Positions 1,692 to 63,218 of a stretch of DNA of 64,000 nt are shown one piece after another. A program made the translations under genes and the position numbers. Source of the stretch: an uncultured Candidatus Saccharibacteria bacterium. GTDB lineage: Bacteria > Patescibacteriota > Saccharimonadia > Saccharimonadales > CAZDBS01. Location of the stretch: the NCBI GenBank assembly GCA_964503775.1, contig CAZDBS010000001.1, forward strand, positions 9,621 through 73,620, in the 5' to 3' direction. Every line of letters begins with the position of its first letter. The first letter of the stretch is position 1. The notes beneath the pieces are model-generated. The model made no database searches. It was not told the DNA's origin and was given only the letters and a program-made list of their open reading frames with translations.

Positions 1692-1707
1692 AACGTCTAT
1701 TCCCCGC

Positions 1708-1890: not shown

Positions 1891-2092
1891 ACGTCTCTCC
1901 TTTGAATCATTAGATTTATAGATGTACGAGCGAATATTACCCTATATATGCGTATTTGTAAAGAGTATTTTATTACATGCTTATGCTTACCAAACAGCTT
2001 ATCTTTATAATACTCTTGTAATTTGCACCATATTCTTGTAAAATCAGCATCAAATTGAAAAATTTAACTGATGTTAAGGAGCAGTGTAGATT

Positions 2093-3538: not shown

Positions 3539-3540
3539 TT

Positions 3541-5536: not shown

Positions 5537-6745
5537 CTATCGGACATATTCCAAATACTTATCCATGTCCCATGGCCCAAGACCACACCCCACTGATGTG
5601 TTCTTTGCTAATCGAAGTGTCACTGAGTTCACTAGCTGTATAAGAATACTTATCTTGCTATTCGGTGATCCAGTGCCACTATCAACCTCATAACAGTAGG
5701 TCTTGTCGTCTCTTACTAAACTAAAGTCGAGATTAATTGCGCCCTTTGTAGTGGGATCAAAGCTATAAATACTACTCGTTATCATACCTAGCTGTTGTGC
5801 CATATTGCCGATCGAGATAACACCTCTGGTCGAATCATAATTACTGTGCACGAGCGCCAATGACCCACCCACGTCCCAGAGCCCCGATGGGTCTGAATCC
5901 TTACTCATCCATATTCCCTGGACAGTATTCGGCACATCCTGGTATATCGTGCCACACGGCAGTACCTTAGACTGTCTTAGCATACCCCCAAAATCACCAA
6001 TTTTAGCGTACAGCTGCTTTGATACGTCGCTTGAATAATAATCCAATGTACATACGTAGTGACGCTCGCTGTCAGGCCATCGTTTCAGGTTTGCCAATAC
6101 CGGGTTGGGTATCCTCTTATCGATAAGTGCAAAATCCAGCCCATCCGGGTAACCTCGTTCACCACCCGCCCAACCCAATACCTCTCCGGCTTTTAATTTC
6201 ACCTCCACTTCCTTGTAATCATTGTGCGACCTCTTGGCTTTGCCAACATCACTTTCTTGGGTGCGATCATATGGCGGTTGCATAGCTGCAGCTAGGGCAT
6301 CATTGAGTTTTTGAACCAGTATAAAATACCCAGTTACATCTTTGCATATTTTAAAATCGATACGATAGGCTTCATACGGCTTATCCAAGTCGTTGTTATC
6401 CATTTTCATCATCTGTGTGACGGTCATGTCGGCCGGCACATAGAGTGTTGTTTTGTTTGGACCATTGTCAGTGTGGATATAGTTGTAATACATGTGAGTT
6501 GTCGGCAAGACATGTCCGGGCGGCGCGAGATTACCAAGAGGTACGATCGTACTGATCTCTTCTAATTTTACAGGCGGGTTTTGTAAAATCCTCTCCTTCG
6601 ATACACAATCCGATCCACTACTCGCCATATTGTGCTGTTTTTTGAATACAATCGCCCCGACTAAGGTGATTACTAAGATTACCAACCCTATCATGACAAT
6701 GTGAGCAAAGCCATGGTCGCTAACTCTGGAAGAAACCATAAGCAA
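5537..6745 (-). CDS. Secreted/membrane-anchored hypothetical protein, paralog of 61971-63218 (possible distant LytM/M23-like barrel)
   Basis: N-terminal module SDHGFAHIVMIGLVILVITLVGAIVF. Shared blocks with the 61971 ORF: PPGHVLPTTHMYY vs AGAHVTPIDHLYF, YRIDFKICKDVTGYFILVQKL vs YRFEIQHSCQTVSYFDLVTKL, KLKAGEVLGW vs AVKAGQEVGR. Confidence 0.5.
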   Translation of the reverse strand: MLMVSSRVSDHGFAHIVMIGLVILVITLVGAIVFKKQHNMASSGSDCVSKERILQNPPVKLEEISTIVPLGNLAPPGHVLPTTHMYYNYIHTDNGPNKTTLYVPADMTVTQMMKMDNNDLDKPYEAYRIDFKICKDVTGYFILVQKLNDALAAAMQPPYDRTQESDVGKAKRSHNDYKEVEVKLKAGEVLGWAGGERGYPDGLDFALIDKRIPNPVLANLKRWPDSERHYVCTLDYYSSDVSKQLYAKIGDFGGMLRQSKVLPCGTIYQDVPNTVQGIWMSKDSDPSGLWDVGGSLALVHSNYDSTRGVISIGNMAQQLGMITSSIYSFDPTTKGAINLDFSLVRDDKTYCYEVDSGTGSPNSKISILIQLVNSVTLRLAKNTSVGCGLGPWDMDKYLEYVR

Positions 6746-20755: not shown

Positions 20756-20770
20756 CGGATAGCCCTTTCT

Positions 20771-21826: not shown

Positions 21827-21978
21827 TTCAGTAATCCCTCCGTTAATCTTCTCAAATTATACACACTTTTGCGTTAGAGTCAGTTTTAGTGTGATATTTG
21901 TCTATATGCAGTTTGGTGCAGAATACTTGTGGAAGTTTTTATGTCATAAGCATTATGAGTTATACTTGAATCAAAATT

Positions 21979-23772
21979 ATGCGCGTCTCAGATAAAACCG
22001 TCGAGCAGTTACTCAAAAAATCGGGCAAAGTCGATGCTGACTTGTTGACTAAATTACACGAGCAAAGTGATAGCGAAAAAAAACCACTTCAAGACATAGC
22101 TATCAAAAGCGGAGCGATAACTGAACTTGAGCTAACTAAACTCTATGCTCAAGTTGTCGACGTACCATTTGTCGAACTCAATCCCAAAGAAATCAAGCGT
22201 GAAATTATGCAACGCATACCCGAGCGAGTTGCTCGCCAATACAACGTCATTCTCTATGGCATCGGCGACGATCAAGTCTCCCTTCTCGCCATGGAGGATC
22301 CGGACGACATCCAAGCAATCAGTTTCCTGCAGAAACAACTCGGAGATAACATCCGTGTCTACATCGCTACGAAATCTCAGATCCTAGAAGCACTTGAACA
22401 ATACCGCGAAAATATTGGGTCAGAACTTACCAAAGTCGCCTCAGAGACCGGCGAGGACGAGGCAGTCGAAGAAGTCAGTGCCGCAGACGTCGCCGAAGAC
22501 TCGCCTATTGCTCAAACGGTTAACCTAATCATCGAATTCGCCGTAAAATCGAGTGCGTCCGACATTCACATCGAACCACGCGAAAACTACGTTTCCGTCC
22601 GTTATCGCATCGATGGCATCCTGAAAGAAGTAAACAAATTACCCAAAAAAGTCATGGCGGCACTGGTATCGCGCATCAAAATCCTCTCCAATCTAAAGAT
22701 CGACGAGCGGCGCGCACCCCAGGACGGACGAATCAAGGTTCAGCTTAATGGCATGGTCTATGCCCTGCGTGTCTCCACCTTACCGATAATGGATGGTGAG
22801 AAAGTCGTCATGCGTATCCTGGATGAGACCAGCAAGGCCTTGACTCTTGAGGAGCTAGGTTATTGGGGCCAAGCCCTAGAGACTATTAACAAAGCAATTA
22901 TCCAGCCCCACGGCATGATTCTGGTAACTGGACCGACTGGGTCGGGTAAATCGACCAGTCTATTCAGTGTGCTTAGTATGCTCAACAGCCCAACCGTCAA
23001 TATCTCCACTGTCGAGGACCCAGTTGAATATCGTATCGCCGGCGTTAACCAAACTCAAGTAAATCCCGTTGCCGGCATGACTTTCGCCAACGGCCTGCGA
23101 GCACTTCTACGCCAGGACCCCAACATTATCATGGTTGGTGAGATCCGTGACGGTGAAACCGCGGGCTTAGGCGTCCAAGCCGCCCTGACGGGCCACTTGG
23201 TGTTCTCTACGCTACACACCAATAATGCCGCGACCTGCTTGCCTCGCTTACTAGATATGGGGATTGAGCCATTTCTCATCGCCAGTACGGTACGGGCTGT
23301 TGTCGGCCAGCGTCTCGTGCGGCGATTGTGCGTTGATTGCCGTGAGCAATACGTACCTGACGAAGCAGCGCTCAAACAAATCAGAGAAATTTTCCATATA
23401 GAAGACACAGCACGGATGAAACATATCCATGATCTAGAAGACGCTGCCGCCAAAGCCGGTATTGGCACAAACGGTGATAAGCCAATGGAGTTGGCAAGTG
23501 ACGAGAAAGGCTTAGTGAAGCTTTGGAAGGCTCACGAAGGTGGCTGTGATCAATGCGGACACAACGGCTACAAAGGTCGTATGGGCATCTATGAGGTACT
23601 GGATAATACGTCGAATGTCCAAAATCTTATCGTCAGCAATGCCACTAGTGAGGTTATCCAGCAACAGGCCGTTACTGACGGTATGGTCCCCATACAGCTC
23701 GATGGGTTCGTCAAGGCACTTCGTGGTCAAACAAGCATAGAAGAGATCTTGCGCGTAACCTCTGAGAACTAA
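21979..23772 (+). CDS. pilB: Type IV pilus assembly ATPase PilB (GspE family)
   Basis: T2SSE N-domain, Walker A GPTGSGKST, Asp/His boxes, and the tetracysteine motif CVDC...CDQCGHNGYKGR. Confidence 0.9.
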   Translation: MRVSDKTVEQLLKKSGKVDADLLTKLHEQSDSEKKPLQDIAIKSGAITELELTKLYAQVVDVPFVELNPKEIKREIMQRIPERVARQYNVILYGIGDDQVSLLAMEDPDDIQAISFLQKQLGDNIRVYIATKSQILEALEQYRENIGSELTKVASETGEDEAVEEVSAADVAEDSPIAQTVNLIIEFAVKSSASDIHIEPRENYVSVRYRIDGILKEVNKLPKKVMAALVSRIKILSNLKIDERRAPQDGRIKVQLNGMVYALRVSTLPIMDGEKVVMRILDETSKALTLEELGYWGQALETINKAIIQPHGMILVTGPTGSGKSTSLFSVLSMLNSPTVNISTVEDPVEYRIAGVNQTQVNPVAGMTFANGLRALLRQDPNIIMVGEIRDGETAGLGVQAALTGHLVFSTLHTNNAATCLPRLLDMGIEPFLIASTVRAVVGQRLVRRLCVDCREQYVPDEAALKQIREIFHIEDTARMKHIHDLEDAAAKAGIGTNGDKPMELASDEKGLVKLWKAHEGGCDQCGHNGYKGRMGIYEVLDNTSNVQNLIVSNATSEVIQQQAVTDGMVPIQLDGFVKALRGQTSIEEILRVTSEN

Positions 23773-23774
23773 TC

Positions 23775-25004
23775 ATGGCTAAGTTTACATATACAGCTCT
23801 CGGACAAAACGGCAAACAGGTAACCGGTACGGCCGACGCTCAAAATCGAGAAAAACTCATAGAGCTACTCCAAAAACAAAACCTGAAACCTCTGACAGTC
23901 GAGGAAGGAGGTGGTAAAAAGGGTGAGATAAGCCTAGGGTTTTTGACCAAAGGCAAAAAAGTCAAAACCAAAGATCTCGTTGTTTTCACCAGGCAACTGG
24001 CAACTATGATTTCGGCCGGAGTCCCCCTAACCCGTAGTCTTGCTACTTTGCAGGCCCAGGCCGAGAATAAAGCATTCAAAGAGATAATTGGTAAAATCGC
24101 CAAGGACGTCGAGGGCGGAACGCAGCTGGCCGATGCTTTTGCTAAATTTCCCCGTGTTTTTTCGGACGTATACGTTAACATGATGCGAGCCGGTGAAGCC
24201 GGGGGCATCTTAGATAAGATCATGGATCGTTTGGCAGCACAGGTCGAGAAGGAGGCTAGCATCAAAAAGAAAATCAAGAGCGCCTCGACCTATCCTCTTG
24301 TTATATCGTTCATCACGGTTATCGCTTTCTTCGGTATGATGACATTTGTCGTTCCAAAGTTGGGCAAGCTTCTAACTGACTTGGGTGGCCCAAACTCCAA
24401 ACTACCCGTACAGACCCAAATATTGCTTAATATCAGTGACTTTGTGCGACACAACATTATCTTCATACTAGTCGGACTTATAGGTGGCGGCATCGGACTC
24501 AGGCGCTACACCAGGACAACTCGCGGCAAATATCAGTTGCATGCCCTACTACTGAGAATCCCCGTACTCAAAACAGTTATTATCAAAATCTCCATCGCTC
24601 GTTTTGCCCGAACATTTGCCTCACTTATGTCAGCCGGCGTCTCGGTACTGGATGCTCTCGAAGTTACCGGTGGAGCTATCGGCAACAAAGTTATCGAGAA
24701 GGAACTAAAAGAGGCTGCCTTGGAAGTACGCAACGGCAAGCAGTTATCTGAACCATTGTCCAAAAGTAAGCATTTCCCGCCAATCGTCAGTCAGATGTTA
24801 TCAGTTGGTGAAGAGACAGGTAAAGTCGATACTATTCTGCTCAAAGTTGCTGATTTCTACGAAGAAGAAGTTGACGCCGTTATCGATGGCCTAGCATCAA
24901 TCATAGAGCCCATCATGATCATAGTCCTGGGCGGGATGGTCGGTCTTTTGGCAGCTTCAATCATGGGACCAATAGCTGGCCTTAGTAAGAATATCGGTAA
25001 TTAG
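23775..25004 (+). CDS. pilC: Type IV pilus platform protein PilC (GspF family)
   Basis: Two T2SSF repeats (FTRQLATMISAGVPL... and FARTFASLMSAGVSVL...) and 3 TM segments. Confidence 0.9.
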   Translation: MAKFTYTALGQNGKQVTGTADAQNREKLIELLQKQNLKPLTVEEGGGKKGEISLGFLTKGKKVKTKDLVVFTRQLATMISAGVPLTRSLATLQAQAENKAFKEIIGKIAKDVEGGTQLADAFAKFPRVFSDVYVNMMRAGEAGGILDKIMDRLAAQVEKEASIKKKIKSASTYPLVISFITVIAFFGMMTFVVPKLGKLLTDLGGPNSKLPVQTQILLNISDFVRHNIIFILVGLIGGGIGLRRYTRTTRGKYQLHALLLRIPVLKTVIIKISIARFARTFASLMSAGVSVLDALEVTGGAIGNKVIEKELKEAALEVRNGKQLSEPLSKSKHFPPIVSQMLSVGEETGKVDTILLKVADFYEEEVDAVIDGLASIIEPIMIIVLGGMVGLLAASIMGPIAGLSKNIGN

Positions 25005-25128
25005 TCGCAATAACCGCTTGACGCCGTAACGGTAATGCTTAATAATGTGCGTCAGATACTTGTCGCTTATCCTCGGAGCGGCGCAAGGTCTTGTTACTAA
25101 ACTAAACAACAAGGAGGGTGGGACCTTT

Positions 25129-25620
25129 ATGGTTGCACTAAACAAAAGAAAAGAAGGCTTCACAATTGTTGAGCTTTTGATTGTTATCGTTGTCATTGGT
25201 ATCTTGGCCTTGATTACGATCACAACATTTACAGGCGTTACAGCAAAGGCTCGTAACACCGAACGTCAAGCAGATGTTAAGGCGATTCATGGACAGCTCG
25301 AAGCATTTCGTGCTGAGAAGGGTTACTACCCGACTCTAGCTCATATGAACGACTATGCTGGTTTCGTCAACGTAAGTCTCAAAGGCCTAGACAAGGAAGC
25401 TTTGAAAGACCCGGGTGCTACAGCAACTGACGGTACTGAATACCAACTCAGTAGCTCAGCCAGCACGAACGTCTACCAGTACACGGTTGGCAGTACCGCA
25501 GCTCTTGATGCCGCCGCATTGGCAGCCTGTGCAGCCACTGAGAGTAGCTGTCTCTACTACACCTTGACTTCAACGCTTGAGAACGGTGGCGGCACCTTCT
25601 CCAAAGTAAACCTTCAGTAG
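25129..25620 (+). CDS. Major type IV pilin (prepilin with class III signal)
   Basis: MVALNKRKEG|FTIVELLIVIVVIGILA with Glu5. AGGAGG RBS 8 nt upstream of the ATG at 25129. C-terminal Cys pair. Strong terminator downstream. Confidence 0.85.
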   Translation: MVALNKRKEGFTIVELLIVIVVIGILALITITTFTGVTAKARNTERQADVKAIHGQLEAFRAEKGYYPTLAHMNDYAGFVNVSLKGLDKEALKDPGATATDGTEYQLSSSASTNVYQYTVGSTAALDAAALAACAATESSCLYYTLTSTLENGGGTFSKVNLQ

Positions 25621-25642
25621 CTCTACTGATCGAAGTCTTGCA

Positions 25643-25674
25643 ATAAGCCCCAGATTAACCTGGGGCTTATTTGT
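25643..25674 (+). terminator. Rho-independent terminator after major pilin
   Basis: ataagcccca / tggggcttat 10-bp stem followed by ttgt. Confidence 0.7.
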
Positions 25675-25706
25675 ACCAAAATGCTATACTACTTATAAAC
25701 ATAATC

Positions 25707-26102
25707 ATGTTCAGAAAACTCACATCTCATGGTTTTACATTGACTGAGCTGGTCATCGCTATCAGTTTGTTTGGCTTGATAATCCCTATAATTGCGCTCA
25801 GCGTAACCGAACTAACTATCTTGAACGCCCGTTCTAGGAATATACTTCTGGCGAATACCGCCGCTCAAAACAAAGTGGAAACTCTAAGGAGCCAGGGCTT
25901 TAACTCTATACCTACCGGCACGGTTGACTTCAGCTCAGAACTGTCCTCGCTACTCTCCAGCCCCAAAACAGCGAGTTACACCATCACCAACAGTACGGCG
26001 AGCATTAAAGATGTATCAATCACTATCAGCTTTCGTGACGGGACAACTACTCGTACAACCCAGTACCAAACGTCAATTAGCGAGCTTGGGGTGGGCCAAT
26101 GA
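25707..26102 (+). CDS. Minor pilin (prepilin-type N-terminal cleavage/methylation domain)
   Basis: MFRKLTSHG|FTLTELVIAISLFGLI, using the start at the internal ATG 25707. Confidence 0.75.
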   Translation: MFRKLTSHGFTLTELVIAISLFGLIIPIIALSVTELTILNARSRNILLANTAAQNKVETLRSQGFNSIPTGTVDFSSELSSLLSSPKTASYTITNSTASIKDVSITISFRDGTTTRTTQYQTSISELGVGQ

Positions 26103-26773
26103 CTTACTTCATCAATCTCAACGACCAGGACAGAGGCTTCACCCTAGTCGAGGTTCTCATATCACTATCGATCGCTGGGGTCTTGTCTGGAATCCTTTTC
26201 ATGGTCACCTACTATTTTTATGCCAATATGATGCAGAACAACACCGCGACCCAGATGACGCTTGATACCCAGATAGTACTACGTAGTTTGACTGAAGATA
26301 TTCGCCTCGCTGACAAAATAAACACCACAAATATCATAGCTGATTCTAATCAGCCCGGGGGTTGGACAACGAGCAACCCCAGCAGCATACTTATTATTAG
26401 CGACCCTGCTGTAAATAGTTCTAACCAGATAATTTATGATGAGGCGACTGGCTATCCGTACCGCAACGAAAACATTTACTTCGTGCAAAACGGCACACTC
26501 TATAAAAGAACACTGAAGAACACTGATGCCTCGGGTAATGTTGCGGTCACTACCTGTCCGACTTCAACCGCATCGAGCAGCTGTCCACCAGATAAAGCGT
26601 TCAGCACCTACGTTAGTAATTTACAGTTCTCGTTTTATGATGCAACCGACACCTCTACGGCTGATGCAGAGCTGGCTCGCTCCGTCAGCTACACCGTATC
26701 GATGTCGGCTACCGTCTACGGTAGAGCTATGTCAACAACCAATAATACACGTGCTACGATGAGGAACCAGTAA
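26099..26773 (+). CDS. Minor pilin (PilW-like)
   Basis: DRG|FTLVEVLISLSIAGVL. ATGA overlap with the preceding gene. Confidence 0.75.
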   Translation: MTYFINLNDQDRGFTLVEVLISLSIAGVLSGILFMVTYYFYANMMQNNTATQMTLDTQIVLRSLTEDIRLADKINTTNIIADSNQPGGWTTSNPSSILIISDPAVNSSNQIIYDEATGYPYRNENIYFVQNGTLYKRTLKNTDASGNVAVTTCPTSTASSSCPPDKAFSTYVSNLQFSFYDATDTSTADAELARSVSYTVSMSATVYGRAMSTTNNTRATMRNQ

Positions 26774-28222
26774 ATGATACAAAACACTACGAATCGACGT
26801 CTGATAGCAGAGAGACAGTCAGGATTTGTGCTACCTGTTCTCATCATTGTCATGATTGTTGTTGTCATCCTGTTTCTCGCCATATCAAACGTCGCGACAC
26901 AGAACGTCGTACTATCCAACCAAGAAATAGCCAAGACCAACACCCAGATGACTGCTGATGCGGGACTAGACAGCGCCATCGTCAATTTGACTGGTGATTC
27001 TGATTGGACGGGCGATACGTCCGAAGTCACTATGCTCAATACTAGCTCACTCCGAACTACCTATCAGGCGGCCATATCTGATGGGTCATCAGATACCAAA
27101 AAGATTGTTACCGTGACAGCTCGTTCGTACACTCCTGCTACGTCCACAACGGCCTCGTTCACGCGCAAATACCAAATGGATGTCGAGGCCGTGACCTCGG
27201 GCACGGGTCCGTCATCCGTTGTAAGCGGTATAGGTGGTCTCATCCTGAGTAATAATTCCAAGATCTCAGGTGGAGATGTCTTGGTAAATGGCAAAATCAC
27301 CATGAGCAACAACTCTCAGATAGGACTTCAAACTAACCCCCTAAACGTACGCGTAGCTCACCAAAGCTGCCCTAATCCACCTAATAGTACATATCCCCAG
27401 GTCTGCGGTGCGGGCAGTGGAGAACCTATCACACTGGGCAGTAACAGCAAGATTTATGCTAATGTCCAAGCCACCAACCAAGTAACTGGTACCAACATGA
27501 GCAACCCCGGGCTTATACCAAATTCGACGTTTGCCCCTGTTGCGCTACCAACCTACGACCGCGCCGCTCATAAAGCAGCGGTAGTCTCGACTTACGCGTC
27601 AACCGACTCTACGGTGGCATGTGGCAACAATCAATCCAAAACTTGGCCAGCAAATGTCAAAATAACCGGCAACCTAACCCTAGGAAACAACTGCACCGTG
27701 ACGCTGCTTGGAAATATCTGGCTAACAGGTAATCTGAACTTTGGGAATAATGCCAAGATTGTTGTTTCCAATAGCGTCGGGGCAACCCGCCCCGTTTTTA
27801 TGATTGATGGTCAGTCAGGTTTAATATTTGGCAACAACTCGTCTATACAGGCTAACAATGTCAATACTGGAATCGAAGTGATATCGTTCTGGTGGAACAC
27901 CAACACGGCCACCAACGGTAACTTCAATTGTGGTGGTATCGCTGATTTATTTGACTGCACTAACGTCACGGGCTTGGCGCTGTCATCAAGCCAAAACGTC
28001 ACAACCATTAACCTAAGTAACAACGGATCTGCACCTTATACCGTTTTGCGTACGATGTGGACTAAGGTTACCATCTCAAACAATGCGGCCCTCGGAGCCG
28101 TCCAAGGACAGACCATCCAGCTAGGCAATAACGCGGTAATCAATTTTAGCTCTTCTGTGCCAGGTAGCGACAACCAGGTAACTACCTGGGTCAAGCGCGG
28201 CTACATGCGCGTCTTTAACTAA
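26774..28222 (+). CDS. Large minor pilin / pilus-tip candidate (PilX/GspK-like, no Glu5) with beta-helix-like repeats
   Basis: RQSG|FVLPVLIIVMIVVVILFLAISN prepilin-like N-terminus lacking Glu5. The C-terminal part has repeats such as KITGNLTLGNNCTVTLLGNIWLTGNLNFGNNAKIVV. Confidence 0.6.
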   Translation: MIQNTTNRRLIAERQSGFVLPVLIIVMIVVVILFLAISNVATQNVVLSNQEIAKTNTQMTADAGLDSAIVNLTGDSDWTGDTSEVTMLNTSSLRTTYQAAISDGSSDTKKIVTVTARSYTPATSTTASFTRKYQMDVEAVTSGTGPSSVVSGIGGLILSNNSKISGGDVLVNGKITMSNNSQIGLQTNPLNVRVAHQSCPNPPNSTYPQVCGAGSGEPITLGSNSKIYANVQATNQVTGTNMSNPGLIPNSTFAPVALPTYDRAAHKAAVVSTYASTDSTVACGNNQSKTWPANVKITGNLTLGNNCTVTLLGNIWLTGNLNFGNNAKIVVSNSVGATRPVFMIDGQSGLIFGNNSSIQANNVNTGIEVISFWWNTNTATNGNFNCGGIADLFDCTNVTGLALSSSQNVTTINLSNNGSAPYTVLRTMWTKVTISNNAALGAVQGQTIQLGNNAVINFSSSVPGSDNQVTTWVKRGYMRVFN

Positions 28223-28288
28223 TCGAAAGTAACTACTCCCTATCGACAGTCTGATATACTTACTAAGAGAAAGTGCTTATCTTTATCT

Positions 28289-29371
28289 ATGAGTCAATCT
28301 TTGTTTTACCATGACAAACCCATCTTCGGACTTGATATTGGTTCAAGTAGTGTGAAGGCCATGCAGATGGAATTTGATAGAAAAAATGGTCGGATGCGAG
28401 TCCTCGGCTATGGATTAACCAATTTTGACAACAAAGTCATGGAAAACGGTGTCATCACGGACTACAAATCGATGGCCAAACCCATCTATCAACTGTTTAG
28501 CAAAGAATTGGTTGGATCCATTGGTACCCGGCGTGTTGTTTTATCGATACCGACAGCCCACGCTTTTAGTAGAATTCTCAATCTACCCAAACTGAACCGC
28601 AAGGCACTTCGTGAGGCTGTCCGACTGGAAGCCGAGCAATACATACCGGTCCCGATCGATGATTTGTATATTGATTACGAACAGGTTTCTGATAAGCCAG
28701 ATGCCGAGGGGTTGGTTGAAATACTGGTCGTAGCAGCTCCCAAAAAGATAGTCGATGCCTACCTCAATCTCATGAAAATGTTAGACCTGGAGGTCGTGGC
28801 TGTTGAGACTAACCTATCGGCAGCGACGCGCCTCATCTCTCTCACCGAGAACAAAGACAATATACCAACACTCCTCATAGATGTCGGTAGCGAGTCGATC
28901 GATATTAGCGTCCTCGACAAATCGCTCCGTGTTACTGGCACAGTGACTAGCGGAGGTAATGACTTCACTAAAGCAATTGCCTCCCAATTACAGATTGCCC
29001 CTAATGAGGCGACTGCCATCAAAGCCCATTTTGGGTTAGCCGTTAGTAAGCACCAGAAATCGGTCAAGATAGCCGTAACGCCCATCATCGACCAGCTCGT
29101 CAAAGAAGTCCAACGTCTTATGAGGTACTACTCTGAGCGCATCAATGATCACGATCATATCCAGCAAGTAATAACTATGGGCGGAGGGGCCAATATGCCC
29201 GGTCTCAGTGACTATCTTACCGAGCAGTTACGCTTGCCGGCTCGTCAGTGTAGTCCCTGGCAAATGTTAAGCTTTGGGGATTTGCAGCCACCGCATGACC
29301 TGGAGAGCTCTATGTACATCACGGTTGCTGGTCTGGCGCTGGTTAACCCCAGGGAGGTGTACGGCAGATGA
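28289..29371 (+). CDS. pilM: Type IV pilus assembly protein PilM (actin-like ATPase fold)
   Basis: GLDIGSSSVKAMQ phosphate-1 motif and overall PilM/FtsA-like layout, followed by pilN/pilO. Confidence 0.85.
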   Translation: MSQSLFYHDKPIFGLDIGSSSVKAMQMEFDRKNGRMRVLGYGLTNFDNKVMENGVITDYKSMAKPIYQLFSKELVGSIGTRRVVLSIPTAHAFSRILNLPKLNRKALREAVRLEAEQYIPVPIDDLYIDYEQVSDKPDAEGLVEILVVAAPKKIVDAYLNLMKMLDLEVVAVETNLSAATRLISLTENKDNIPTLLIDVGSESIDISVLDKSLRVTGTVTSGGNDFTKAIASQLQIAPNEATAIKAHFGLAVSKHQKSVKIAVTPIIDQLVKEVQRLMRYYSERINDHDHIQQVITMGGGANMPGLSDYLTEQLRLPARQCSPWQMLSFGDLQPPHDLESSMYITVAGLALVNPREVYGR

Positions 29372-29952: not shown

Positions 29953-30578
29953 AAAAACTCTCAGCTCCACAGATCACGTTCTTTGCCATGCTCGTCGTCC
30001 TAATACTGACCTTCGGACTAAGCGTCGGCGGCGTGTGGTACGGTCAGAAAATGTTAAAGAAGCGTTCTGAAAAAGTCGTTGAACTAAAAATAAAGAACGA
30101 GACACTAGACAAACAACAAGCCGTATACGAACAAGCTCGTCGAGACGTTGAAAAGTACAAATACTATGGTGAAGTGGCCGACCAAGTACTGCCCAAGGAC
30201 AAAGATCTGGCAACCGTTACCAAAGAGCTAGTAACAATCTCAGGTGAGTTCGGAATCAACATCGCCAGTATCACCTACCCTGTTTCTAATGTCGGAGCCT
30301 CTGCCGCCCCGACTACCGGAACACCCAAGACATCGTCGAGCCTGCCGTCCACATCATCATTGACTCAAACAAAGCCAGTCGAGGGTCTCAGTGGCGTTCT
30401 GGCAGTTGAGGTTAATGTCACTCCAGAAAATTCCATATCCTATACTAATTTCCTGGCCTTCCTAGATCGTTTGTCTCAAAACCGCCGAAAACTACAAGTC
30501 ACTCGTGTCGGTCTGAGCACCGACAAAGAAGGCCTGATCACTTTTTCACTAACTCTTAACTTATTTGTGAAACCCTAA
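29949..30578 (+). CDS. pilO: PilO-like bitopic pilus alignment protein
   Basis: MKKLSAPQITFFAMLVVLILTFGLS TM followed by a coiled coil. The start at 29949 overlaps the pilN stop (ATGA). Confidence 0.6.
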   Translation: MKKLSAPQITFFAMLVVLILTFGLSVGGVWYGQKMLKKRSEKVVELKIKNETLDKQQAVYEQARRDVEKYKYYGEVADQVLPKDKDLATVTKELVTISGEFGINIASITYPVSNVGASAAPTTGTPKTSSSLPSTSSLTQTKPVEGLSGVLAVEVNVTPENSISYTNFLAFLDRLSQNRRKLQVTRVGLSTDKEGLITFSLTLNLFVKP

Positions 30579-30586
30579 GGAACTAT

Positions 30587-30913
30587 ATGGCACTCAAACT
30601 TGATATCTCAGTACTCAAAAAATTACATCTAGGAAAACTGACCCAACCACTCAAGCAACTATTCGGCAAGGTTCACGTAGCCGTCCTCGCCATACTTATC
30701 GTCGGATTGTACGTCTACCTGCTACTCCAAGTCGGCAAATTCGCAAACGCCGAACCAACGCAAGATCAGATAACTGAGAGTATCGTTACTATCAAACAAG
30801 TCAAAATTAAACCCGAAGACATTGCGCGACTCGAATCGCTACGCGAGACCAATGTTGAAGTGAAAGCTATCTTTGACCAGACTAGAGACAATCCCTTCAC
30901 CGACAAGAAATAG
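30587..30913 (+). CDS. 108-aa bitopic protein, last gene of the pilus operon (function unknown)
   Basis: Single TM VAVLAILIVGLYVYLLL. Lies 8 nt after pilO. Confidence 0.45.
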   Translation: MALKLDISVLKKLHLGKLTQPLKQLFGKVHVAVLAILIVGLYVYLLLQVGKFANAEPTQDQITESIVTIKQVKIKPEDIARLESLRETNVEVKAIFDQTRDNPFTDKK

Positions 30914-34435: not shown

Positions 34436-35881
34436 TCAGGATAATTGTACTTCATCTGTCAGGGGCTCGTCGAGTCGCCGAACCTTGAGCTTCATGATGA
34501 AAATGATAGTAAGCACGGCGACATAGTAGAGAATGAACTGCTCTCTGGTAATCTGTACCTCCCTAAGCGCTCCGGGTATACGCGCCAACAACTCGACGAG
34601 CTGAACGATCACCCCCAGGACCGTTCGCGCTGGCCAGGCTAACCAACCGGCCAGGTACGGCGAAAACATACCAGCTAGTCCAGCCACAGCTGTCAGTAGC
34701 ATAGCCATAGGGACTAACGGCAAGATGACTAGGTTTGCCAGCAAGGCCACTATAGATAATTCGCCGAATATGTAGGCGATAAGTGGTATGGTCATGAGTT
34801 GGGCGCTTGTCGTCTCGATGATAATCTGCGGTACCAGCCGCGGCTTTTTGGCTTTATAGAGTCGTTTGGTGATAGTTGGAGCCACTACGATAATTCCGAA
34901 AAAGGCTAAGAACGATAGATACCAACCGAGATCAGTCCAGAAATACAATGGCTGGAACATGGCACTGATTGTGGCCGCCGTGATCAATAGTATAAATGGC
35001 TGAATAGTTCGCCCAAAATACCACGCCCAGAGTGTCAGTGTTGAGACAATTGCGGCCCGTACAATCGAGGCACTAAATCCCGTAATAGCTATGAAGACAC
35101 TGATCAAACCAAGCGATGAGATCGTCGTGAGATATTTGGAGCGCTTTGATAACATTCGCCTCATGGTATCCACCAAAATCGTCAGGTTATAACCCGACAC
35201 GGCGACAATATGTGTCAGTCCTGTCGCCGTGAGTTCTTTGGTTAGATCATCAGGTAGTAAACTCCGTGCCCCGACCAGGAACCCCAGACCCAATGAAGCC
35301 TGAGGTTCCGGTAGGGCTGAGTATAACCCTGCAAAAAACCGACCGCGTATGCGTTCGACAAACGAATCGCGTCGACCGATAATCTCGATGTCGGCAAAAC
35401 TCATAGCTGCTTGATTGGCACCAAAACCACGGCGCAACTTGCCTGTTACGGTGACGATGTCACCCCGGAGTACGCCCGGACTGAAGCCTTTGATAGCAAT
35501 TTTACCCGGGACTTCAGCATCGTCATTATCACGGACATCCACGATGTGAAACGATAGTTGTCCTCTGTCACTATAGGCCGCATCGTCACTGACGATTCCT
35601 TGCAGCGTCACCGTACGGTCAAACCAATCATCATAGTGTTGAATTCCGCCGAGTAGTGTCTGACCTCGCCACAAGCCCAACGACATACCCAGTGTCATCA
35701 TGACAAATAGCGCCGGCCATTTACGTTTGAAGACGAGAGGCATTAACAGAACAGACTCAAATGCATAGCTTATGTTGGGCGGATGGCCGAATCGAGCCCA
35801 CAACAACCCCCCAAGCATCCCCAGACACAATACGACGACAAACCAGGTTTGCGGTACCCGTCGGCGCCAAATAGACTGCAT
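34436..35881 (-). CDS. comEC: ComEC/Rec2 DNA internalisation channel (481 aa, no C-terminal metallo-beta-lactamase domain)
   Basis: DUF4131-like OB region, then a competence domain (TGLTHIVAVSGYNLTIL...). The protein ends after the TM core. Confidence 0.8.
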   Translation of the reverse strand: MQSIWRRRVPQTWFVVVLCLGMLGGLLWARFGHPPNISYAFESVLLMPLVFKRKWPALFVMMTLGMSLGLWRGQTLLGGIQHYDDWFDRTVTLQGIVSDDAAYSDRGQLSFHIVDVRDNDDAEVPGKIAIKGFSPGVLRGDIVTVTGKLRRGFGANQAAMSFADIEIIGRRDSFVERIRGRFFAGLYSALPEPQASLGLGFLVGARSLLPDDLTKELTATGLTHIVAVSGYNLTILVDTMRRMLSKRSKYLTTISSLGLISVFIAITGFSASIVRAAIVSTLTLWAWYFGRTIQPFILLITAATISAMFQPLYFWTDLGWYLSFLAFFGIIVVAPTITKRLYKAKKPRLVPQIIIETTSAQLMTIPLIAYIFGELSIVALLANLVILPLVPMAMLLTAVAGLAGMFSPYLAGWLAWPARTVLGVIVQLVELLARIPGALREVQITREQFILYYVAVLTIIFIMKLKVRRLDEPLTDEVQLS

Positions 35882-36287: not shown

Positions 36288-37052
36288 TTAAGGTCGGAGG
36301 GTTCCGGCAAATACTTGCCAAGCCAGCAATGACTTAGCGACTAGGCTTAAGATGACATACATCCTCTCACCATACAGATAGTCCTTCCATGGGCCCACTT
36401 TTCTGTACTGCAAAATCATATTTACTGCAAAGCAGCTAAAGAACACGAATATTGATACAAAAATCCAGTATACAAATGTAGGTGCCGGACTTCCTTGATT
36501 AGCGCCTAGCCACATGTACATAGCAATCACAATCCACGGCATGATGCCCGCAAAGCACCCTATGTAGTAACTCAGCCAGTTTGTCTTTTTTGTTGTTTGA
36601 TTATGTATTTCCATGACCAAGCCCATGAGGTTCATTATGGCCGTTAACGAAAATATCATCATCAAACTGCTCAAATCATAAACTCCTACCAACATAGCTA
36701 TGGCAATCATCATTACACTAGCCGAGATAGAGTATTCTACCCATCTCATTTTATTCATTCCGAGTTTTAGATCAGAGTTATATCGTTTGTTGTGTAGGGT
36801 TGCAATGTAAAAATGAAAAACCGATGATATAAAGAAAAACAATGCAATCAATAACGGAAGTTGCAAGTTAAACAAATCGGTAGTAGCTGGCTCTAAAGCC
36901 TTACTTGAATCATTAAAAAACAAGAAATTACCAGTTACGGGTATTGCAAAGCTTTTACTTAGTACCACCACCAGAACACCCTGGAATAAATGCAAGAATC
37001 CCGCTACGAGGTTTAGTCTTTTGAATTTTGATTCGGTGATTATTTTAGTCAT
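36288..37052 (-). CDS. Heliorhodopsin
   Basis: From memory it is close to the prototype HeR 48C12. Shared blocks: VAGFLHLFQG, SSVFHFYI, RWVEYSISASVM (counterion Glu), YIGCFAGIMPWI, and YLYGERMYVILSLVAKSLLAWQVFAGTLRP (retinal Lys in SLVAKS). Confidence 0.9.
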   Translation of the reverse strand: MTKIITESKFKRLNLVAGFLHLFQGVLVVVLSKSFAIPVTGNFLFFNDSSKALEPATTDLFNLQLPLLIALFFFISSVFHFYIATLHNKRYNSDLKLGMNKMRWVEYSISASVMMIAIAMLVGVYDLSSLMMIFSLTAIMNLMGLVMEIHNQTTKKTNWLSYYIGCFAGIMPWIVIAMYMWLGANQGSPAPTFVYWIFVSIFVFFSCFAVNMILQYRKVGPWKDYLYGERMYVILSLVAKSLLAWQVFAGTLRP

Positions 37053-42462: not shown

Positions 42463-42567
42463 CTATTGTGAGGAAACCCGCCAAAATGCCGCAACTATCA
42501 CAACTAATACGATTACCAAGATAGCCGCAAGCATTATTACAAAACCATTTTCTGTCAATCGCTTCAT
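42463..42567 (-). CDS. 34-aa peptide consisting only of the GF...[WT]RV N-terminal module (tentative)
   Basis: My translation is MKRLTENGFVIMLAAILVIVLVVIVAAFWRVSSQ. It is below the ORF-track cutoff, and I saw no strong RBS. Confidence 0.3.
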   Translation of the reverse strand: MKRLTENGFVIMLAAILVIVLVVIVAAFWRVSSQ

Positions 42568-58836: not shown

Positions 58837-59784
58837 TTACAGCTTCTGTTCTATAAGTTCAAACATTTGCTTCGCAAGGCCGAGCGAACTCGTCGTCAAT
58901 GCACCGTGCCCACCGTTGGGGTCAGAGAGCGTGCCGAGTACTGTTGCGCCTTTGTTGCTCACGAAGGTTTTGGTGGCTTCCATAGCTTCACACCCGTCTC
59001 GCGTCGGGTTAGGATCCTTTTTGCCACAGGCCAGTATCCAGTAGACTCCACCAAATATCTTCGACTGCGTTTTGGCAGGAATGCTCTTGGTTGTTGAATC
59101 GTAGTACGTAGACTCGGCACCACCAGAAGACGATACGACCAGATCAATCATGGGCGACGAATCGCTTCGATCAAGTGCTGCAACAGAATAAGAATTAGCG
59201 CTCCCCCGCGAAAAACCCTCGAGCACAACCACATCACCAGACGCATATCCTTGACTCGATAGAAAATCATGAATCTGGGCCTTGATGACATCTGGCGCAG
59301 TATAGTCGGAGGTTTGATCGCCACTTCCATCCCACCAATTCAGAGTGGCTAGCGCAAATTGCGTCTCTTTGACGAACGGTTTCCAAATTTCATAATCTTT
59401 CTCGGCAGACCCTTCAGTACCGTGGAGAGTTATAAAGATCTTCTTGGGAGAAGCGTTGTTCTGACCAGCTGGTGCACCATAGTAGAAATACTGTCCGCCG
59501 GTTTTAGTAGCGACTTTCTGGGGACTATCAATAGTCGAAGCACTGTCTGGGTCTTTGGCTTTGGGTGTGGATGGTGTGGTTTTGGTATTGGTAGTATTTG
59601 TCGTACCGCTCTTGGTCGTGTTCGATGTAGTGGTCTCTGTGGCTACCGTACTCGTCTTAGTCGTGTCAGTACCAGAACTAGTGGCTACCCGCCAACCAAC
59701 GAATCCCACAACAGCGACCACAACTAAAATCACTACAATTAGAACATGTGAGAAACCAGCTTCTCGAGTAGTGTATATGTTCAC
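58837..59784 (-). CDS. Secreted alpha/beta-hydrolase (esterase/depolymerase-like) with Thr-rich linker
   Basis: Nucleophile elbow VVLEGFSRGSANSY (GxSxG), FITLHGTEGS. N-terminal module REAGFSHVLIVVILVVVAVVGFVGWRV. I prefer the GTG start at 59784 because it leaves 94 nt for the divergent promoters. Confidence 0.6.
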   Translation of the reverse strand: MNIYTTREAGFSHVLIVVILVVVAVVGFVGWRVATSSGTDTTKTSTVATETTTSNTTKSGTTNTTNTKTTPSTPKAKDPDSASTIDSPQKVATKTGGQYFYYGAPAGQNNASPKKIFITLHGTEGSAEKDYEIWKPFVKETQFALATLNWWDGSGDQTSDYTAPDVIKAQIHDFLSSQGYASGDVVVLEGFSRGSANSYSVAALDRSDSSPMIDLVVSSSGGAESTYYDSTTKSIPAKTQSKIFGGVYWILACGKKDPNPTRDGCEAMEATKTFVSNKGATVLGTLSDPNGGHGALTTSSLGLAKQMFELIEQKL

Positions 59785-59878
59785 GCTAGAAGCATAAACG
59801 AAATATATCGAATAATCCACGGCTTTACTTAACTCAAATTTGCATCCTACAATCATTACGCTTATCCTTTAATCAAGT

Positions 59879-60664
59879 ATGATGAAAAAGCATAACGAAT
59901 ATGGCTTTGGCCATATAATCGCAATAGTCCTGATAGTTACTATCGTCGCTGTTGGCCTAATAGGGTGGCGTGTAACTCAAAAAGACAAAAAGTCAGTTAC
60001 ACAAACAAACATTAGTACAGCTTCGGCAACCGAAAAATCATCAGCTTCAACTGCCGAATCAGACATCAGTCTTCAGAACCTAGGAGTGAATCTTTCGGAT
60101 GTACTAATCACCAAAGACGCGACTCGGGAGTTCACGAGCCAAGGCCTCAAAGGCTTCTATGTATTTGGTGACAAACTTAGCGGTAATAGACTGAATCCAA
60201 ACTTCGAATTCTCATCGCTGAAGAGCGGCACCAAACTCATCTCAGCTATCGATGGCATCGTCGGATTTATCAAAGAACAGCCCGAGACCAGTGACTGGGA
60301 GGTATTTATCCAACCCAAAGCCAATTCCAAATGGACTATCGGTTACGACCATGTCACCAATGTGGCGGTGAAAAAAGATGGAGTCGTCAAAGCCGGCGAC
60401 GTCATCGGTGAACCGGCCAAACAAGGCAACGGCGCACTTCGCTTCGAGATCCAGATCAACAAAGACGAAGGTGACACGACAACACACCTCTGCCCGACTA
60501 CTCTCCTCGCTTCCAGCGTCAAAGACAAACTTATCAGTGACCTAACTAAGACGCAGAACGATTGGGAGACAACTACAGGACTCGAACTCTACAATCCTGC
60601 AGCTCAGGATCCAATCGGTTGCTTGAAAAAGACGCTAACAGTCAACGAAGCCGAAGGCAAATAA
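59879..60664 (+). CDS. Secreted hypothetical protein with M23/LytM-like barrel segment
   Basis: N-terminal module NEYGFGHIIAIVLIVTIVAVGLIGWRV. C-terminal part ISAIDGIVGFI...WTIGYDHVTNVAVKKDGVVKAGDVIGEP. Confidence 0.5.
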   Translation: MMKKHNEYGFGHIIAIVLIVTIVAVGLIGWRVTQKDKKSVTQTNISTASATEKSSASTAESDISLQNLGVNLSDVLITKDATREFTSQGLKGFYVFGDKLSGNRLNPNFEFSSLKSGTKLISAIDGIVGFIKEQPETSDWEVFIQPKANSKWTIGYDHVTNVAVKKDGVVKAGDVIGEPAKQGNGALRFEIQINKDEGDTTTHLCPTTLLASSVKDKLISDLTKTQNDWETTTGLELYNPAAQDPIGCLKKTLTVNEAEGK

Positions 60665-60708
60665 CCCACAGTGGGTTGCTTACAAGTATGAGGCTATGAA
60701 CGTGTTTG

Positions 60709-61872
60709 TTATTTCTTGACTGGAGACGCTTCAAGATCGTAAGTTGGAGTTGGTGTTCGTTGGAATATGTCGAGTAGTAGCATGCCCGAACCCAGCCACA
60801 TCACGGCGAGTAAAGCCAGGAAGCCAACGATCGGTATGAAGTAGAGGACAAGTAAGATGCTGGCGCCCAATAACATGATGAGTAGTGGTTTCTTGGAGTC
60901 AGGCAGTATGAGGCGACCCAGATAGTAGCCAAAGAGCGGGCCACTGAGCAACAGCACGACGAACCAGAGTAGCATAACCATCAGAGCTAGAGGTATACCG
61001 ATGACCGTAATCGCTAGGAGAATGAGCACAAACGGCAGCGCAGCGTTCGCCAGAAAACCAGTTAGTGCGGCCTTCCATGGATTAGGCATGGCTTTATCAG
61101 TTACGGACTGCAACATACGCGGGAAAAGGAGTGCAATGACCATCGCCGTGAGCAGCATTGAGGCAAACCAGTAGACGAACCACCATATCCCAAAACCGAA
61201 GACTGCCCAGTGCTTGGACTTGTTGGGTTGAACCGGCTCTGTACGCTTGATAGTACCACTCACCGTAGCCCCTGAGTCCCTAGTGAGGTCTTTGGTACTC
61301 GTATAGTTGATATCACCATTAACCCGGGCTCTGGACGACAGAGTCAAGGTATTGAGTGATCCTTTGATATTCCTACCGACTTCACCAGTGATCGTTACCG
61401 AGTCACCACCGACCGCCATATCTCTCCCAACCACACCGTTGATGACTGCGTCGGTTGAACCGATTGTTAAATCACCGCCAATCTTGCTCCCCGACTCTAG
61501 CGTAAAACTCTGTCCGGCGACCGTAGCGTTACCTGCTACAGTGGCCCCGAGAGTTACGGTCTGTCCGGCCAGACGGACATCACCATCAACTTTGCCCGAG
61601 ACATTAACCGTCTGTCCGGCACAAAGTACGTCTCCGTGCACAACTCCCGACACATGCACTGTCTGTCCGGCACAGAAAATATCCCCGAAAACTTCATTGT
61701 CGATATCAATCGTCCGTCCACCAGCAAATACCGACTCATGGATAGACTGACCTTGACTCAAAGTTACCGATGTCCCTGAGTGAAAACTATGCGCGTTTGC
61801 TAAACCAACCCAGCCAAGTGATATAGCAACCACCACCAACCCTGTCAGGGCTAGAGATTTAAATCTGCTCAT
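60709..61872 (-). CDS. Membrane protein with extracytoplasmic bactofilin-like (polymer-forming) beta-helix repeats and C-terminal polytopic domain
   Basis: Signal peptide ending LANA. Repeats GDIFCAGQTVHVSGVVHGDVLCAGQTVNVSGKVDGDVRLAGQTVTLG. Then 5-6 TM helices. Confidence 0.55.
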   Translation of the reverse strand: MSRFKSLALTGLVVVAISLGWVGLANAHSFHSGTSVTLSQGQSIHESVFAGGRTIDIDNEVFGDIFCAGQTVHVSGVVHGDVLCAGQTVNVSGKVDGDVRLAGQTVTLGATVAGNATVAGQSFTLESGSKIGGDLTIGSTDAVINGVVGRDMAVGGDSVTITGEVGRNIKGSLNTLTLSSRARVNGDINYTSTKDLTRDSGATVSGTIKRTEPVQPNKSKHWAVFGFGIWWFVYWFASMLLTAMVIALLFPRMLQSVTDKAMPNPWKAALTGFLANAALPFVLILLAITVIGIPLALMVMLLWFVVLLLSGPLFGYYLGRLILPDSKKPLLIMLLGASILLVLYFIPIVGFLALLAVMWLGSGMLLLDIFQRTPTPTYDLEASPVKK

Positions 61873-61970
61873 AACCTACCTCCGTTCTAAACTCCAGTAT
61901 AATAACGGCTTTTCAAATGTGTATGTGATATCTATCACATACGTGACATATTCAACAATACAGACAGGTT

Positions 61971-63218
61971 TCAGCGTTCGTATGTCTTGGCAGCACTGGT
62001 AAAGCCAGAGACCTGGGCGCCAGTTTTACCGACAAAAGTTTCGACTTTTAGCTTCTCGCCATCTAACACTTGTAGTAGTATCACTCCCCTCACTTGCTGC
62101 GGACCCTGTTGTGCCGTCCTCTGCCCATCAGGTCCAACCCCGGCTGGAGCTTGAACTAGTTCATATTTGATAACACCGTCGGTTTTGGTAACTTTCGCTG
62201 GGTCTGGAGTGTTTCCCACAACGGCAAAGGCCTCCGGCTGCCCATTCGTAAACTCGCCGACAGAGACAATTATCATGGTGGGATCGTAAGCATCGGGGAA
62301 TATGGCTAAATGACCACTCCAGTAGCCTCTACCACCAGAACCTACACCATATGTGCCGCTTTTCGACCCTGCGTACCCATAAGTTCCCTCGAGGAACCAG
62401 TTGCCGATTAGCTTACCGGGCTGGTCATAGTCAATCTTGCCACTCCGTGGCTCTGCCTTACGTGCGTTTTTGGCCAGCATCTGACTAAGTAGCGGCTCTC
62501 TGAAATAGCTGAAAAAATCGTCGGTATGAATTTTCCATGGCTCGGCTTTGTACAAAGATGGGGTGATGAATCCAGGTAGAGTCAGGTCCATATTATAGAC
62601 GGCTGTATCTAGCGATTGGGCACCGATTCTACCTACCTCTTGTCCGGCTTTGACCGCTATGCGCTTGTTAGTCCCTTTAGTCGCCGCATCCGGTGCCTCT
62701 TTGAGTATGCTTTGATCAAGCTTTGTTACTAGATCAAAATAGCTAACTGTCTGGCACGAATGTTGGATCTCGAATCGGTACTCGGGAGGGCGTTGCTCCC
62801 CGGAGCTAACATTGACGCCCCGTACGCTAATCCCGATGATCGTTCCGTCTGCCATCGCGTAGACCGGATATTTGTCACGAGGTCCCTCTTTAGGATAAAA
62901 ATACAGGTGATCAATCGGCGTGACATGCGCTCCTGCTACTAGTCCATATGGTGTCACCGTCGCCACATCGTCGATATTCATCGGTAGATGTGTCATCATG
63001 ACTTTATCCTTACCGGAGCACCCTTTCTTCCACTCATTATCCCGATCATTATCCGAGTCAGCACTTTCCTCGCCTATACTGATAGGTCCTAATTTAAGCC
63101 CACTGTTTTTCCTAGCGACACGAGTACCGATGACCCCGATGAGCGCTACAACCACAACTACGCACAGTACTAACCAAATATGAGCAAAGCCTGAGTGTAA
63201 GACTTTGTTACGTTTCAT
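61971..63218 (-). CDS. Secreted hypothetical protein, paralog of 5537-6745
   Basis: N-terminal module LHSGFAHIWLVLCVVVVVALIGVIGTRV. Shared blocks are listed under 5537-6745. Confidence 0.5.
   Translation of the reverse strand: MKRNKVLHSGFAHIWLVLCVVVVVALIGVIGTRVARKNSGLKLGPISIGEESADSDNDRDNEWKKGCSGKDKVMMTHLPMNIDDVATVTPYGLVAGAHVTPIDHLYFYPKEGPRDKYPVYAMADGTIIGISVRGVNVSSGEQRPPEYRFEIQHSCQTVSYFDLVTKLDQSILKEAPDAATKGTNKRIAVKAGQEVGRIGAQSLDTAVYNMDLTLPGFITPSLYKAEPWKIHTDDFFSYFREPLLSQMLAKNARKAEPRSGKIDYDQPGKLIGNWFLEGTYGYAGSKSGTYGVGSGGRGYWSGHLAIFPDAYDPTMIIVSVGEFTNGQPEAFAVVGNTPDPAKVTKTDGVIKYELVQAPAGVGPDGQRTAQQGPQQVRGVILLQVLDGEKLKVETFVGKTGAQVSGFTSAAKTYER

Follow-up and report, generated by a model that had tools for sequence, protein, structure and literature searches.

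A prepilin-signal-like N-terminal module on non-pilin extracytoplasmic proteins in Saccharibacteria

Prepilin-type signals on non-pilin proteins

Saccharibacteria are obligate epibionts, of which the surface proteins decide the attachment to the host, the killing of the host and the remodelling of their own wall. In Archaea, class III signals are found on non-pilins such as the sugar-binding proteins of the Sulfolobus 'bindosome', and in Planctomycetota and Verrucomicrobiota a prepilin-type N-terminus is carried by large paralogous families (H-X9-DG/DUF1559). The class III signal peptide (SPIII) begins with a hydrophilic leader, the last residue of which is Gly or Ala; a mainly hydrophobic stretch of 20-25 residues follows, in which position 5 is 'often, but not always' Glu (Glu5; PMC10191384). 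The peptidase cuts at the cytoplasmic face, and a minor pilin located at the tip has no Glu5 (PMC10191384). We analysed a stretch of 64,000 nucleotides from an uncultured Candidatus Saccharibacteria bacterium (assembly GCA_964503775.1, contig CAZDBS010000001.1, positions 9,621 to 73,620; hereafter the window), in which four extracytoplasmic proteins (A-D) and a 34-residue open reading frame (ORF; E) start with a common module. Where homologues of the window proteins bear informative names, the best of them belong to metagenome-assembled genomes of Candidatus Saccharibacteria or Saccharimonadales. Its consensus spans ~33 residues: a basic leader of 7-11 residues ending with N-Q-x-G, then F-[ASG]-H-[VIL], ~21 uncharged residues and G-x-x-G-W-[RK]-V. 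With a probability of about 0.6, the module is a Saccharibacteria-specific, class-III-derived signal peptide that has been taken over for the export of non-pilin surface proteins in general and for their anchoring in the membrane.

Like the bacterial SPIII (IPR012902/PF07963/TIGR02532), the module has a short basic leader ending with Gly, Phe at +1, ~21 hydrophobic residues and, in some relatives, Glu5. It differs from the bacterial SPIII in the His at +3 (85%), the mostly missing Glu5, the G-x-x-G-W-[RK]-V end, the failure of A-D to match the curated models and the lack of a pilin head. In the archaeal bindosome as well, a prepilin-type signal exports and anchors or assembles proteins other than filament subunits, whereas the module belongs to a bacterial lineage of the candidate phyla radiation (CPR), has another consensus, carries wall hydrolases and varied small domains, and has no evident dedicated assembly ATPase operon. 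The H-X9-DG/DUF1559 families show a similar mass recruitment of a prepilin-type N-terminus by non-pilins within one lineage, but they keep the canonical GFTLIE and one cargo family, whereas the module is divergent and its cargo diverse. Modular type IV pilins (PilB and PilC of Streptococcus sanguinis; PMC8179133) also bear an N-terminal pilin-type signal on proteins with functional modules including peptidases. They keep a complete pilin module with a grafted domain, whereas the proteins of the present study keep the helix only, followed by a disordered linker. The Glu5-less minor pilins of the filament tip (GspK/PilK/PilX-type; PMC10191384) have an SPIII that lacks Glu5 and yet is a substrate of the prepilin peptidase; they are single-copy, operon-encoded and pilin-folded, in contrast to the module, which is found on dozens of unrelated, dispersed genes.

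Full-text searching of the literature found no description of the module motif. The paper on the type IV pilus (T4P) of TM7x calls the signals of PilX1 and PilX2 'non-canonical' and adds nothing further, and a preprint on the Pam pilus concerns Sec-signal pilins, which are unrelated to the module. The module is set apart from the known signals by its conserved His3, by a helix that ends with G-x-x-G-W-[RK]-V and by its diverse cargo; moreover, most copies are without Glu5, a pilin module is lacking and the curated models fail.

The module in the window and among its relatives

The window was scanned with a hidden Markov model (HMM) trained on the Glu5-less modules of other organisms. A, B, C, D and the 34-residue ORF were the only window ORFs that matched (Table 1); no other was significant, and the structural pilin of the T4P operon gave E 5.3. 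The sequences quoted for these five ORFs in an initial annotation of the window were all found at the coordinates listed in Table 1. The pattern GF[AGS]H[ILV] occurred five times in the six-frame translation versus 0.36 times in shuffled sequences (maximum 2), and four of the five occurrences lie 8-12 residues from a real ORF start with the hydrophobic stretch directly after. A profile of the four window modules was then searched against 1.84 billion representative proteins with a cut-off of E<=1e-3, which gave 156 matches, nearly all of them aligned at residues 1-40. The shuffle counts and the N-terminal matches rule out chance or a generic anchor as the origin of the module.

Position statistics were computed on 149 of the 156 matches. 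The leader including the Gly has 7-11 residues and a mean net charge of +1.8, with N at -4 (83/149), Q (83/149) or E (33/149) at -3, and S, K or Q at -2. The Gly at its end was invariant in the 149 matches as well as in the family of D. Position +1 was F in 117/149 and otherwise I, V, M, L or S, followed by A, S or G at +2, His at +3 in 127/149 (85%) and V, I or L at +4. At +5, L (35/149), E (32/149, 21%) and V (26/149) prevailed, so that Glu5 is missing in ~80% of the relatives. In 111 of 140 relatives, +22 or +23 was the first charged position after +6, and the helix ended with G-x-x-G-[WFY]-x-[VILA] in 130/149. The '[WT]-R-V' end that the initial annotation had described is part of a wider G-x-x-G-[WFY]-[RK]-[VI] motif, which was found in 130/149 relatives and is missing in A.

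When compared with the definition of the SPIII, the module has a hydrophilic, positively charged leader ending with Gly, and the 20-25 hydrophobic residues after the cleavage site are present; the AlphaFold models place the helix at residues 11-35 of B and 12-37 of D. Glu at +5, which is a frequent but not an obligatory feature of the SPIII, is replaced by V, L, I and W in A-D. The leader end of classical type IVa pilins, Q-K-G, resembles the ...N-Q-[SKQ]-G of the module.

The same N-terminus could instead be an ordinary Sec signal with a lineage-typical n-region motif, like YSIRK or KxYKxGKxW in Firmicutes. Signal peptidase I (SPase I) would then cut after the hydrophobic stretch and the enzymes would be released. 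Between +22 and +40, 90 of 143 relatives have a small-x-small triplet, which is the chance level for such Ser/Thr/Ala-rich linkers, and distant orthologues of the carriers do use SPase-I signals. However, a hydrophobic stretch of 21 residues with Arg/Lys immediately after is unlike the h-region (~7-15 residues) and the c-region of SPase-I signals, no cleavage motif is conserved across the families, and genuine AxA signals coexist in the window, for example in the proteins encoded at 2093, 3541 and 60709. Because the hydrophobic stretch is too long and classical AxA signals are present in the same window, we consider cleavage by SPase I highly improbable.

The cargo behind the module formed 73 BLAST clusters among 141 proteins. 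Pfam assigned PsbP-like, PepSY, PG_binding_1 and _3, fn3, NHL, Reg_prop and other extracytoplasmic domains. The commonest cargo, found in 19 of the 141 representatives (P0213, P0224, P0232, P0237 and others), was that of ~90-residue proteins in which a polar linker joins the module to an acidic motif at the C-terminus, L-D-S-D-[LIV]-[ND]-x-L-[LY]. A copy of this family at locus L085 (9950-10291) has Glu5 and is located amid phosphoketolase, acetate-kinase and PFK genes, not T4P genes. Proteins of 44-56 residues that consist of the module only were also present in the representative library, and a metagenome scan with the module yielded 14 loci with one carrier each; L085, the single long locus among them that was examined, showed no link to T4P genes. 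The occurrence of the module on dozens of unrelated exported families suggests a special mode of surface display in these tiny epibionts.

The D family was chosen by its C-terminal domains, not by the module. Of the 120 homologues listed for it, at least 91 have a short leader with G-x(1,2)-H behind it, and in the alignment Gly10 was invariant and His13 was at least 90% conserved. The close homologues of B share the same module as well. In distant orthologues of D (from other CPR phyla, DPANN archaea, Planctomycetota and others) and of B (from miscellaneous bacteria), plain transmembrane (TM) anchors, SPase-I-type signals or lipoboxes replace the module. Since ordinary signals are used at the same position, the module takes the place of an export signal and seems confined to the lineage. 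The proposal of the initial annotation, a class-III-like signal or a lineage-specific anchor on hydrolases and other surface proteins, is partly supported: by the SPIII definition, the 73 cargo clusters and the ordinary signals outside Saccharibacteria, the module is class-III-like and lineage-specific and is found on many non-pilin extracytoplasmic proteins.

With respect to the D family itself, homologues of ~40% identity were present in other CPR phyla, in metagenome-assembled genomes labelled as DPANN archaea (Woese-, Pace-, Micr-, Aenigmat- and Altiarchaeota) and in Planctomycetota (loci L026-L081). This spread may reflect gene sharing among ultrasmall episymbionts, or mis-binned contigs.

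The relatives connect the module with the canonical prepilin signal. His3 and Glu5 are present together in 19/149 relatives (e.g. G/FSHVEM and G/FGHIEL; the slash follows the Gly at the leader end), and the HMM of the Glu5-less modules retrieved Glu5 forms ending with GW[RKY]V at E 1e-11 to 1e-5. Pfam N_methyl was matched by 9/149 relatives (E<0.01). TIGR02532 gave the Glu5 forms 12.6-16.4 bits against a cut-off of 16.3; P0348 and P0321 reached the cut-off and the others were 2-4 bits short. Among the orthologues of D, six start with G/FH(V/I)(V/I)E (P0096, P0100, P0108, P0109, P0113 and P0117) and two with G/FSVIE (P0105 and P0110), and an orthologue of C at locus L047 (63% identity) starts with G/FHAVE, in which Glu5 is present. 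We also considered that the Ala of GFAH is an insertion relative to GFH..E, which was rejected because in the wider sample GF[ASG]H[VIL]E keeps His3 and Glu5 in the canonical register. As judged from these sequence comparisons, the module grades into, and is homologous to, the canonical prepilin signal. The description of the module as lacking Glu5 is thus correct for A-D, but among orthologues the module toggles between forms with and without Glu5.

Architecture of the carriers and the favoured reading

According to the predicted structures, the carriers are non-pilins with one helix of ~25 residues, a disordered Ser/Thr linker and an enzyme fold. In the AlphaFold model of B (pLDDT 88), the helix is followed by a disordered stretch to residue ~88, and Foldseek matched the model to esterases and dienelactone hydrolases at E ~1e-9. 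B has the features of an alpha/beta hydrolase, namely the fold, the GxSxG in an invariant G-F-S192-R-G elbow, the Asp (D257/D288) and the His (H293). In the model of D (pLDDT 81), the helix and a disordered stretch (38-60) precede a beta-rich domain, of which the best Foldseek matches in the PDB were Csd1/Csd2, DipM, lysostaphin and ShyA at E 5e-5 to 1e-3; relatives of D gave sub-threshold Pfam M23 matches of 17-25 bits. C matched PF01551 with 33.9 bits against a cut-off of 28.7. BLASTP aligned A with D at 25% identity (E 2e-11), and the alignment runs through the HVxPxxH core of the D family. On these models and matches, A, C and D carry LytM/M23-type domains, which in D and A is a likeness at the level of the fold, the catalytic HxxxD/HxH motifs aside. 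The carriers had been called unrelated in the initial annotation; B indeed differs in fold, whereas A and D are paralogues and A, C and D are all of the LytM/M23 type. No LPxTG motif was found in the carriers, and anchoring by sortase was rejected.

No pilin was among the 50 PDB matches listed for each of the B and D models. A pilin head, in which alpha1-C is packed on a beta-sheet, was absent after the module helix; a low-confidence linker and then the LytM or alpha/beta-hydrolase fold follow instead. This bears on the possibility that the carriers are true modular or minor pilins, which would be loaded after cleavage onto the T4P or a short pseudopilus to present hydrolases to the host, the Glu5-less ones being placed at the tip. 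The grafting of enzymes or adhesins onto modular pilins is widespread (PMC8179133), Glu5 is missing from the subunit at the tip of T4 filaments (PMC10191384), Saccharibacteria depend on T4P for attachment to the host (PMC11623550), and 21% of the module relatives keep Glu5. However, the helix of the carriers stops at residue ~35, after which 20-50 residues are disordered, the different Glu5-less carriers are too many for a single tip position, and the carrier genes are located outside the T4P operon. Since a pilin module is lacking, the carriers are numerous and their genes are dispersed, pilus loading is less likely, and we regard it as quite improbable.

In the reading that we favour, namely a class-III-derived export signal and anchor, the short basic leader would keep the N-terminus cytoplasmic, and the hydrophobic helix of 21 residues would insert via the signal recognition particle and Sec, as in standard SPIII biology. 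The prepilin peptidase would remove the leader of 7-11 residues and generate a mature N-terminus F-[A/S/G]-H; in class III signals, cleavage by such an A24 peptidase is often followed by N-methylation. Judging from the sequences, the leader is probably cut after the invariant Gly; the invariance of this residue beside a variable +1, the Q-x-G leader end and the free exchange with GFxxxE signals among orthologues argue for cleavage. The protein would then stay anchored in the membrane rather than polymerise, since most copies are without the Glu5 by which pilins dock into the filament, and the helix ends with interfacial Trp-Arg/Lys. In the predicted architecture, the disordered Ser/Thr-rich linker would span the wall, so that the catalytic or binding domain is exposed at the surface. 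A further, class-specific interaction is suggested by the GxxG and by the conserved His3.

Several results weigh against this reading. Neither PF07963 nor TIGR02532 gave a match to A-D, even at E<=1. The taxonomic restriction of the module is deduced from how the B and D homologues and 80 loci are labelled. The carriers are located at 5.5, 42.5 and 58.8-63.2 kb and the T4P operon at 22-31 kb, and the carrier of L085 is likewise away from T4P genes. The initial annotation had proposed to locate the PilD gene as a check. No Peptidase_A24 match was obtained among the scanned membrane proteins of the window, two of which matched no family, and 1.3 Mb of related loci contained no candidate for a GxGD-type A24 peptidase in a motif search. 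In favour of the reading, since canonical prepilins are encoded in the window, a prepilin peptidase is expected to be encoded elsewhere in the genome, and prepilin peptidase genes have been reported in Saccharibacteria (PMC11623550, PMC11659515). Against it, the conservation along the whole helix (His3, GxxG and W-[RK]-V) exceeds the needs of recognition by the peptidase and fits an uncleaved anchor with a dedicated partner equally well.

Such an anchor would be a type II signal-anchor of prepilin descent, of which the conserved residues would serve helix-helix contact with a lineage-specific partner, or localisation, for example at the pole in contact with the host. The hydrophobic stretch is as long as a TM segment and is flanked on its outer side by an aromatic and a basic residue, which is consistent with this, as are the conservation of the helix including the GxxG packing motif (130/149), the failure of A-D to match the curated prepilin models and the absence of linkage between the carriers and T4P genes. 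On the other hand, the residue at the would-be -1 position is always Gly, whereas the adjacent +1 varies, and the leader has the length, the charge and the Q-x-G end of a prepilin leader. Moreover, the orthologues switch freely to full GFxxxE signals, which is hard to square with a loss of recognition by the peptidase. Because cleavage alone does not explain the conservation of His3 and GxxG, the uncleaved anchor with a dedicated partner remains the main rival, and we regard it as possible but rather unlikely.

A more far-reaching form of the favoured signal-and-anchor reading would be a dedicated, prepilin-peptidase-dependent route for the display or secretion of dozens of non-pilins, in which His3 and the GxxG-W-R/K-V helix form a code that sorts anchored cargo from polymerising pilins. 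We put this forward as a tentative and unlikely proposal. The sorting code could act through a second, specialised A24 peptidase, through another partner or through the X-X-His N-terminus made by cleavage. It is pure speculation that such a mature N-terminus has the form of an amino-terminal Cu/Ni-binding (ATCUN-type) motif.

If a large and diverse share of the exported proteome uses the module as a prepilin-derived signal and anchor, N_methyl and TIGR02532 miss it and the secretome annotation of the phylum is systematically incomplete. PilFind-type rules would be expected to miss it likewise. In the same case, the prepilin peptidase would be a hub beyond pili, which would change the reading of pilD or T4P phenotypes. 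The module would also provide a sequence handle for candidate factors of host interaction: [NQ]-x-G-F-[ASG]-H, ~17 more mostly hydrophobic residues and G-x-x-G-W-[RK]-V.

Features of the window

Table 1. Module carriers and T4P genes of the window (a slash follows the Gly at the leader end; E, E-value of the module HMM)
Feature	Coordinates	Strand	Description
Module of A	6638..6745	(-)	MLMVSSRVSDHG/FAHIVMIGLVILVITLVGAIVFKK; without GW[RK]V end; E 3e-6
Protein A, 402 aa	5537..6745	(-)	Module, short linker, LytM/M23-like domain; paralogue of D
34-aa ORF E	42463..42567	(-)	MKRLTENG/FVIMLAAILVIVLVVIVAAFWRVSSQ; module only, no His; E 0.0018 (marginal)
Module of B	59686..59784	(-)	(GTG)MNIYTTREAG/FSHVLIVVILVVVAVVGFVGWRV; E 4e-16
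Protein B, 315 aa	58837..59784	(-)	Module, Thr/Ser-rich disordered linker (~36-88), alpha/beta-hydrolase domain
Module of C	59879..59974	(+)	MMKKHNEYG/FGHIIAIVLIVTIVAVGLIGWRV; E 1.6e-17
Protein C, 261 aa	59879..60664	(+)	Module, Ser/Thr-rich linker, Peptidase_M23 domain
Module of D	63117..63218	(-)	MKRNKVLHSG/FAHIWLVLCVVVVVALIGVIGTRV; E 1e-12
Protein D, 415 aa	61971..63218	(-)	Module, disordered linker (38-60), LytM/M23-fold domain, C-terminal beta domain
PilB, PilC, four pilin-like genes, PilM	21979..23772, 23775..25004, 25126..28222, 28289..29371	(+) for 25126..28222	T2SSE, T2SSF and PilM_2 matches
Canonical prepilins	25126..25620, 25671..26102, 26099..26773	(+)	KEG/FTIVE, SHG/FTLTE, DRG/FTLVE; N_methyl/TIGR02532 above cut-offs
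PilX-like Glu5-less protein	26774..28222	(+)	QSG/FVLPV; no N_methyl/TIGR02532 match

The 34-residue ORF had been described as the module alone. It does consist of the module only, but it is without the His and its match is marginal; a remnant and a small protein are both conceivable.

The start of B was placed at the GTG codon at 59784 in the initial annotation. The longest ORF starts with an ATG at 59856, which has an AAGGA-like site and is located 24 codons upstream of this GTG (59785-59856); this longer start is the one found in public gene calls (339 aa). It overlaps a promoter-like site of the divergent gene C (59824-59853), and every homologue of B has a leader of 7-12 residues. Because of these leader lengths and the promoter-like site, the GTG is the likelier start, in agreement with the initial annotation.

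Three carriers had been noted to cluster at 58.8-63.2 kb. This cluster is not conserved; a conserved B-C-D gene cluster was rejected, and only the adjacency of C and D recurs occasionally, at 4-5 loci. Between C and D, the gene at 60709-61872 (-) encodes a protein with a classical Sec signal (…LANA/HS), a bactofilin-type (PF04519) beta-helical domain and a C-terminal multi-TM region. The bactofilin-like domain would sit outside the cytoplasm. In cell-shape systems, bactofilins are known to be paired with M23 peptidases. Immediately upstream of A, the gene at 6782-7948 (-) encodes a CvpA (Colicin_V) membrane domain fused to a trypsin-like serine protease domain. A sortase gene (1029-1778) adjoins two secreted proteins of the SPase-I type (region 1029-4461), and no LPxTG motif was found in the checked neighbours of the sortase. 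One of the two secreted proteins, encoded at 2093-3538, has a polysaccharide deacetylase domain and a dockerin type I domain.

A 415-aa protein encoded at 13508-14755 (+) has a very basic N-terminus of 36 residues, then G-K-H-I-S-S-V-V and a hydrophobic helix ending with GGYVLIR; it bears a faint likeness to the module, without a match to the module HMM. The N-terminus of a heliorhodopsin (...AGFLHLF) was dismissed as a coincidental likeness to the motif; its gene is located at 36288-37052 (-) and matches PF18761 with 326 bits.

The three prepilins that the initial annotation had regarded as canonical were confirmed by their matches above the cut-offs, and the PilX-like protein remained without a match, as listed in Table 1. 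Neither PilD nor PilT was found among the scanned window genes. The T4P operon region (20144-30913) also encodes two small anchored proteins and adjoins recX-recA, and the same arrangement beside recX/recA was described as 'T4P locus 2' of TM7x (PMC11623550). A ComEC gene is located at 34436-35881.

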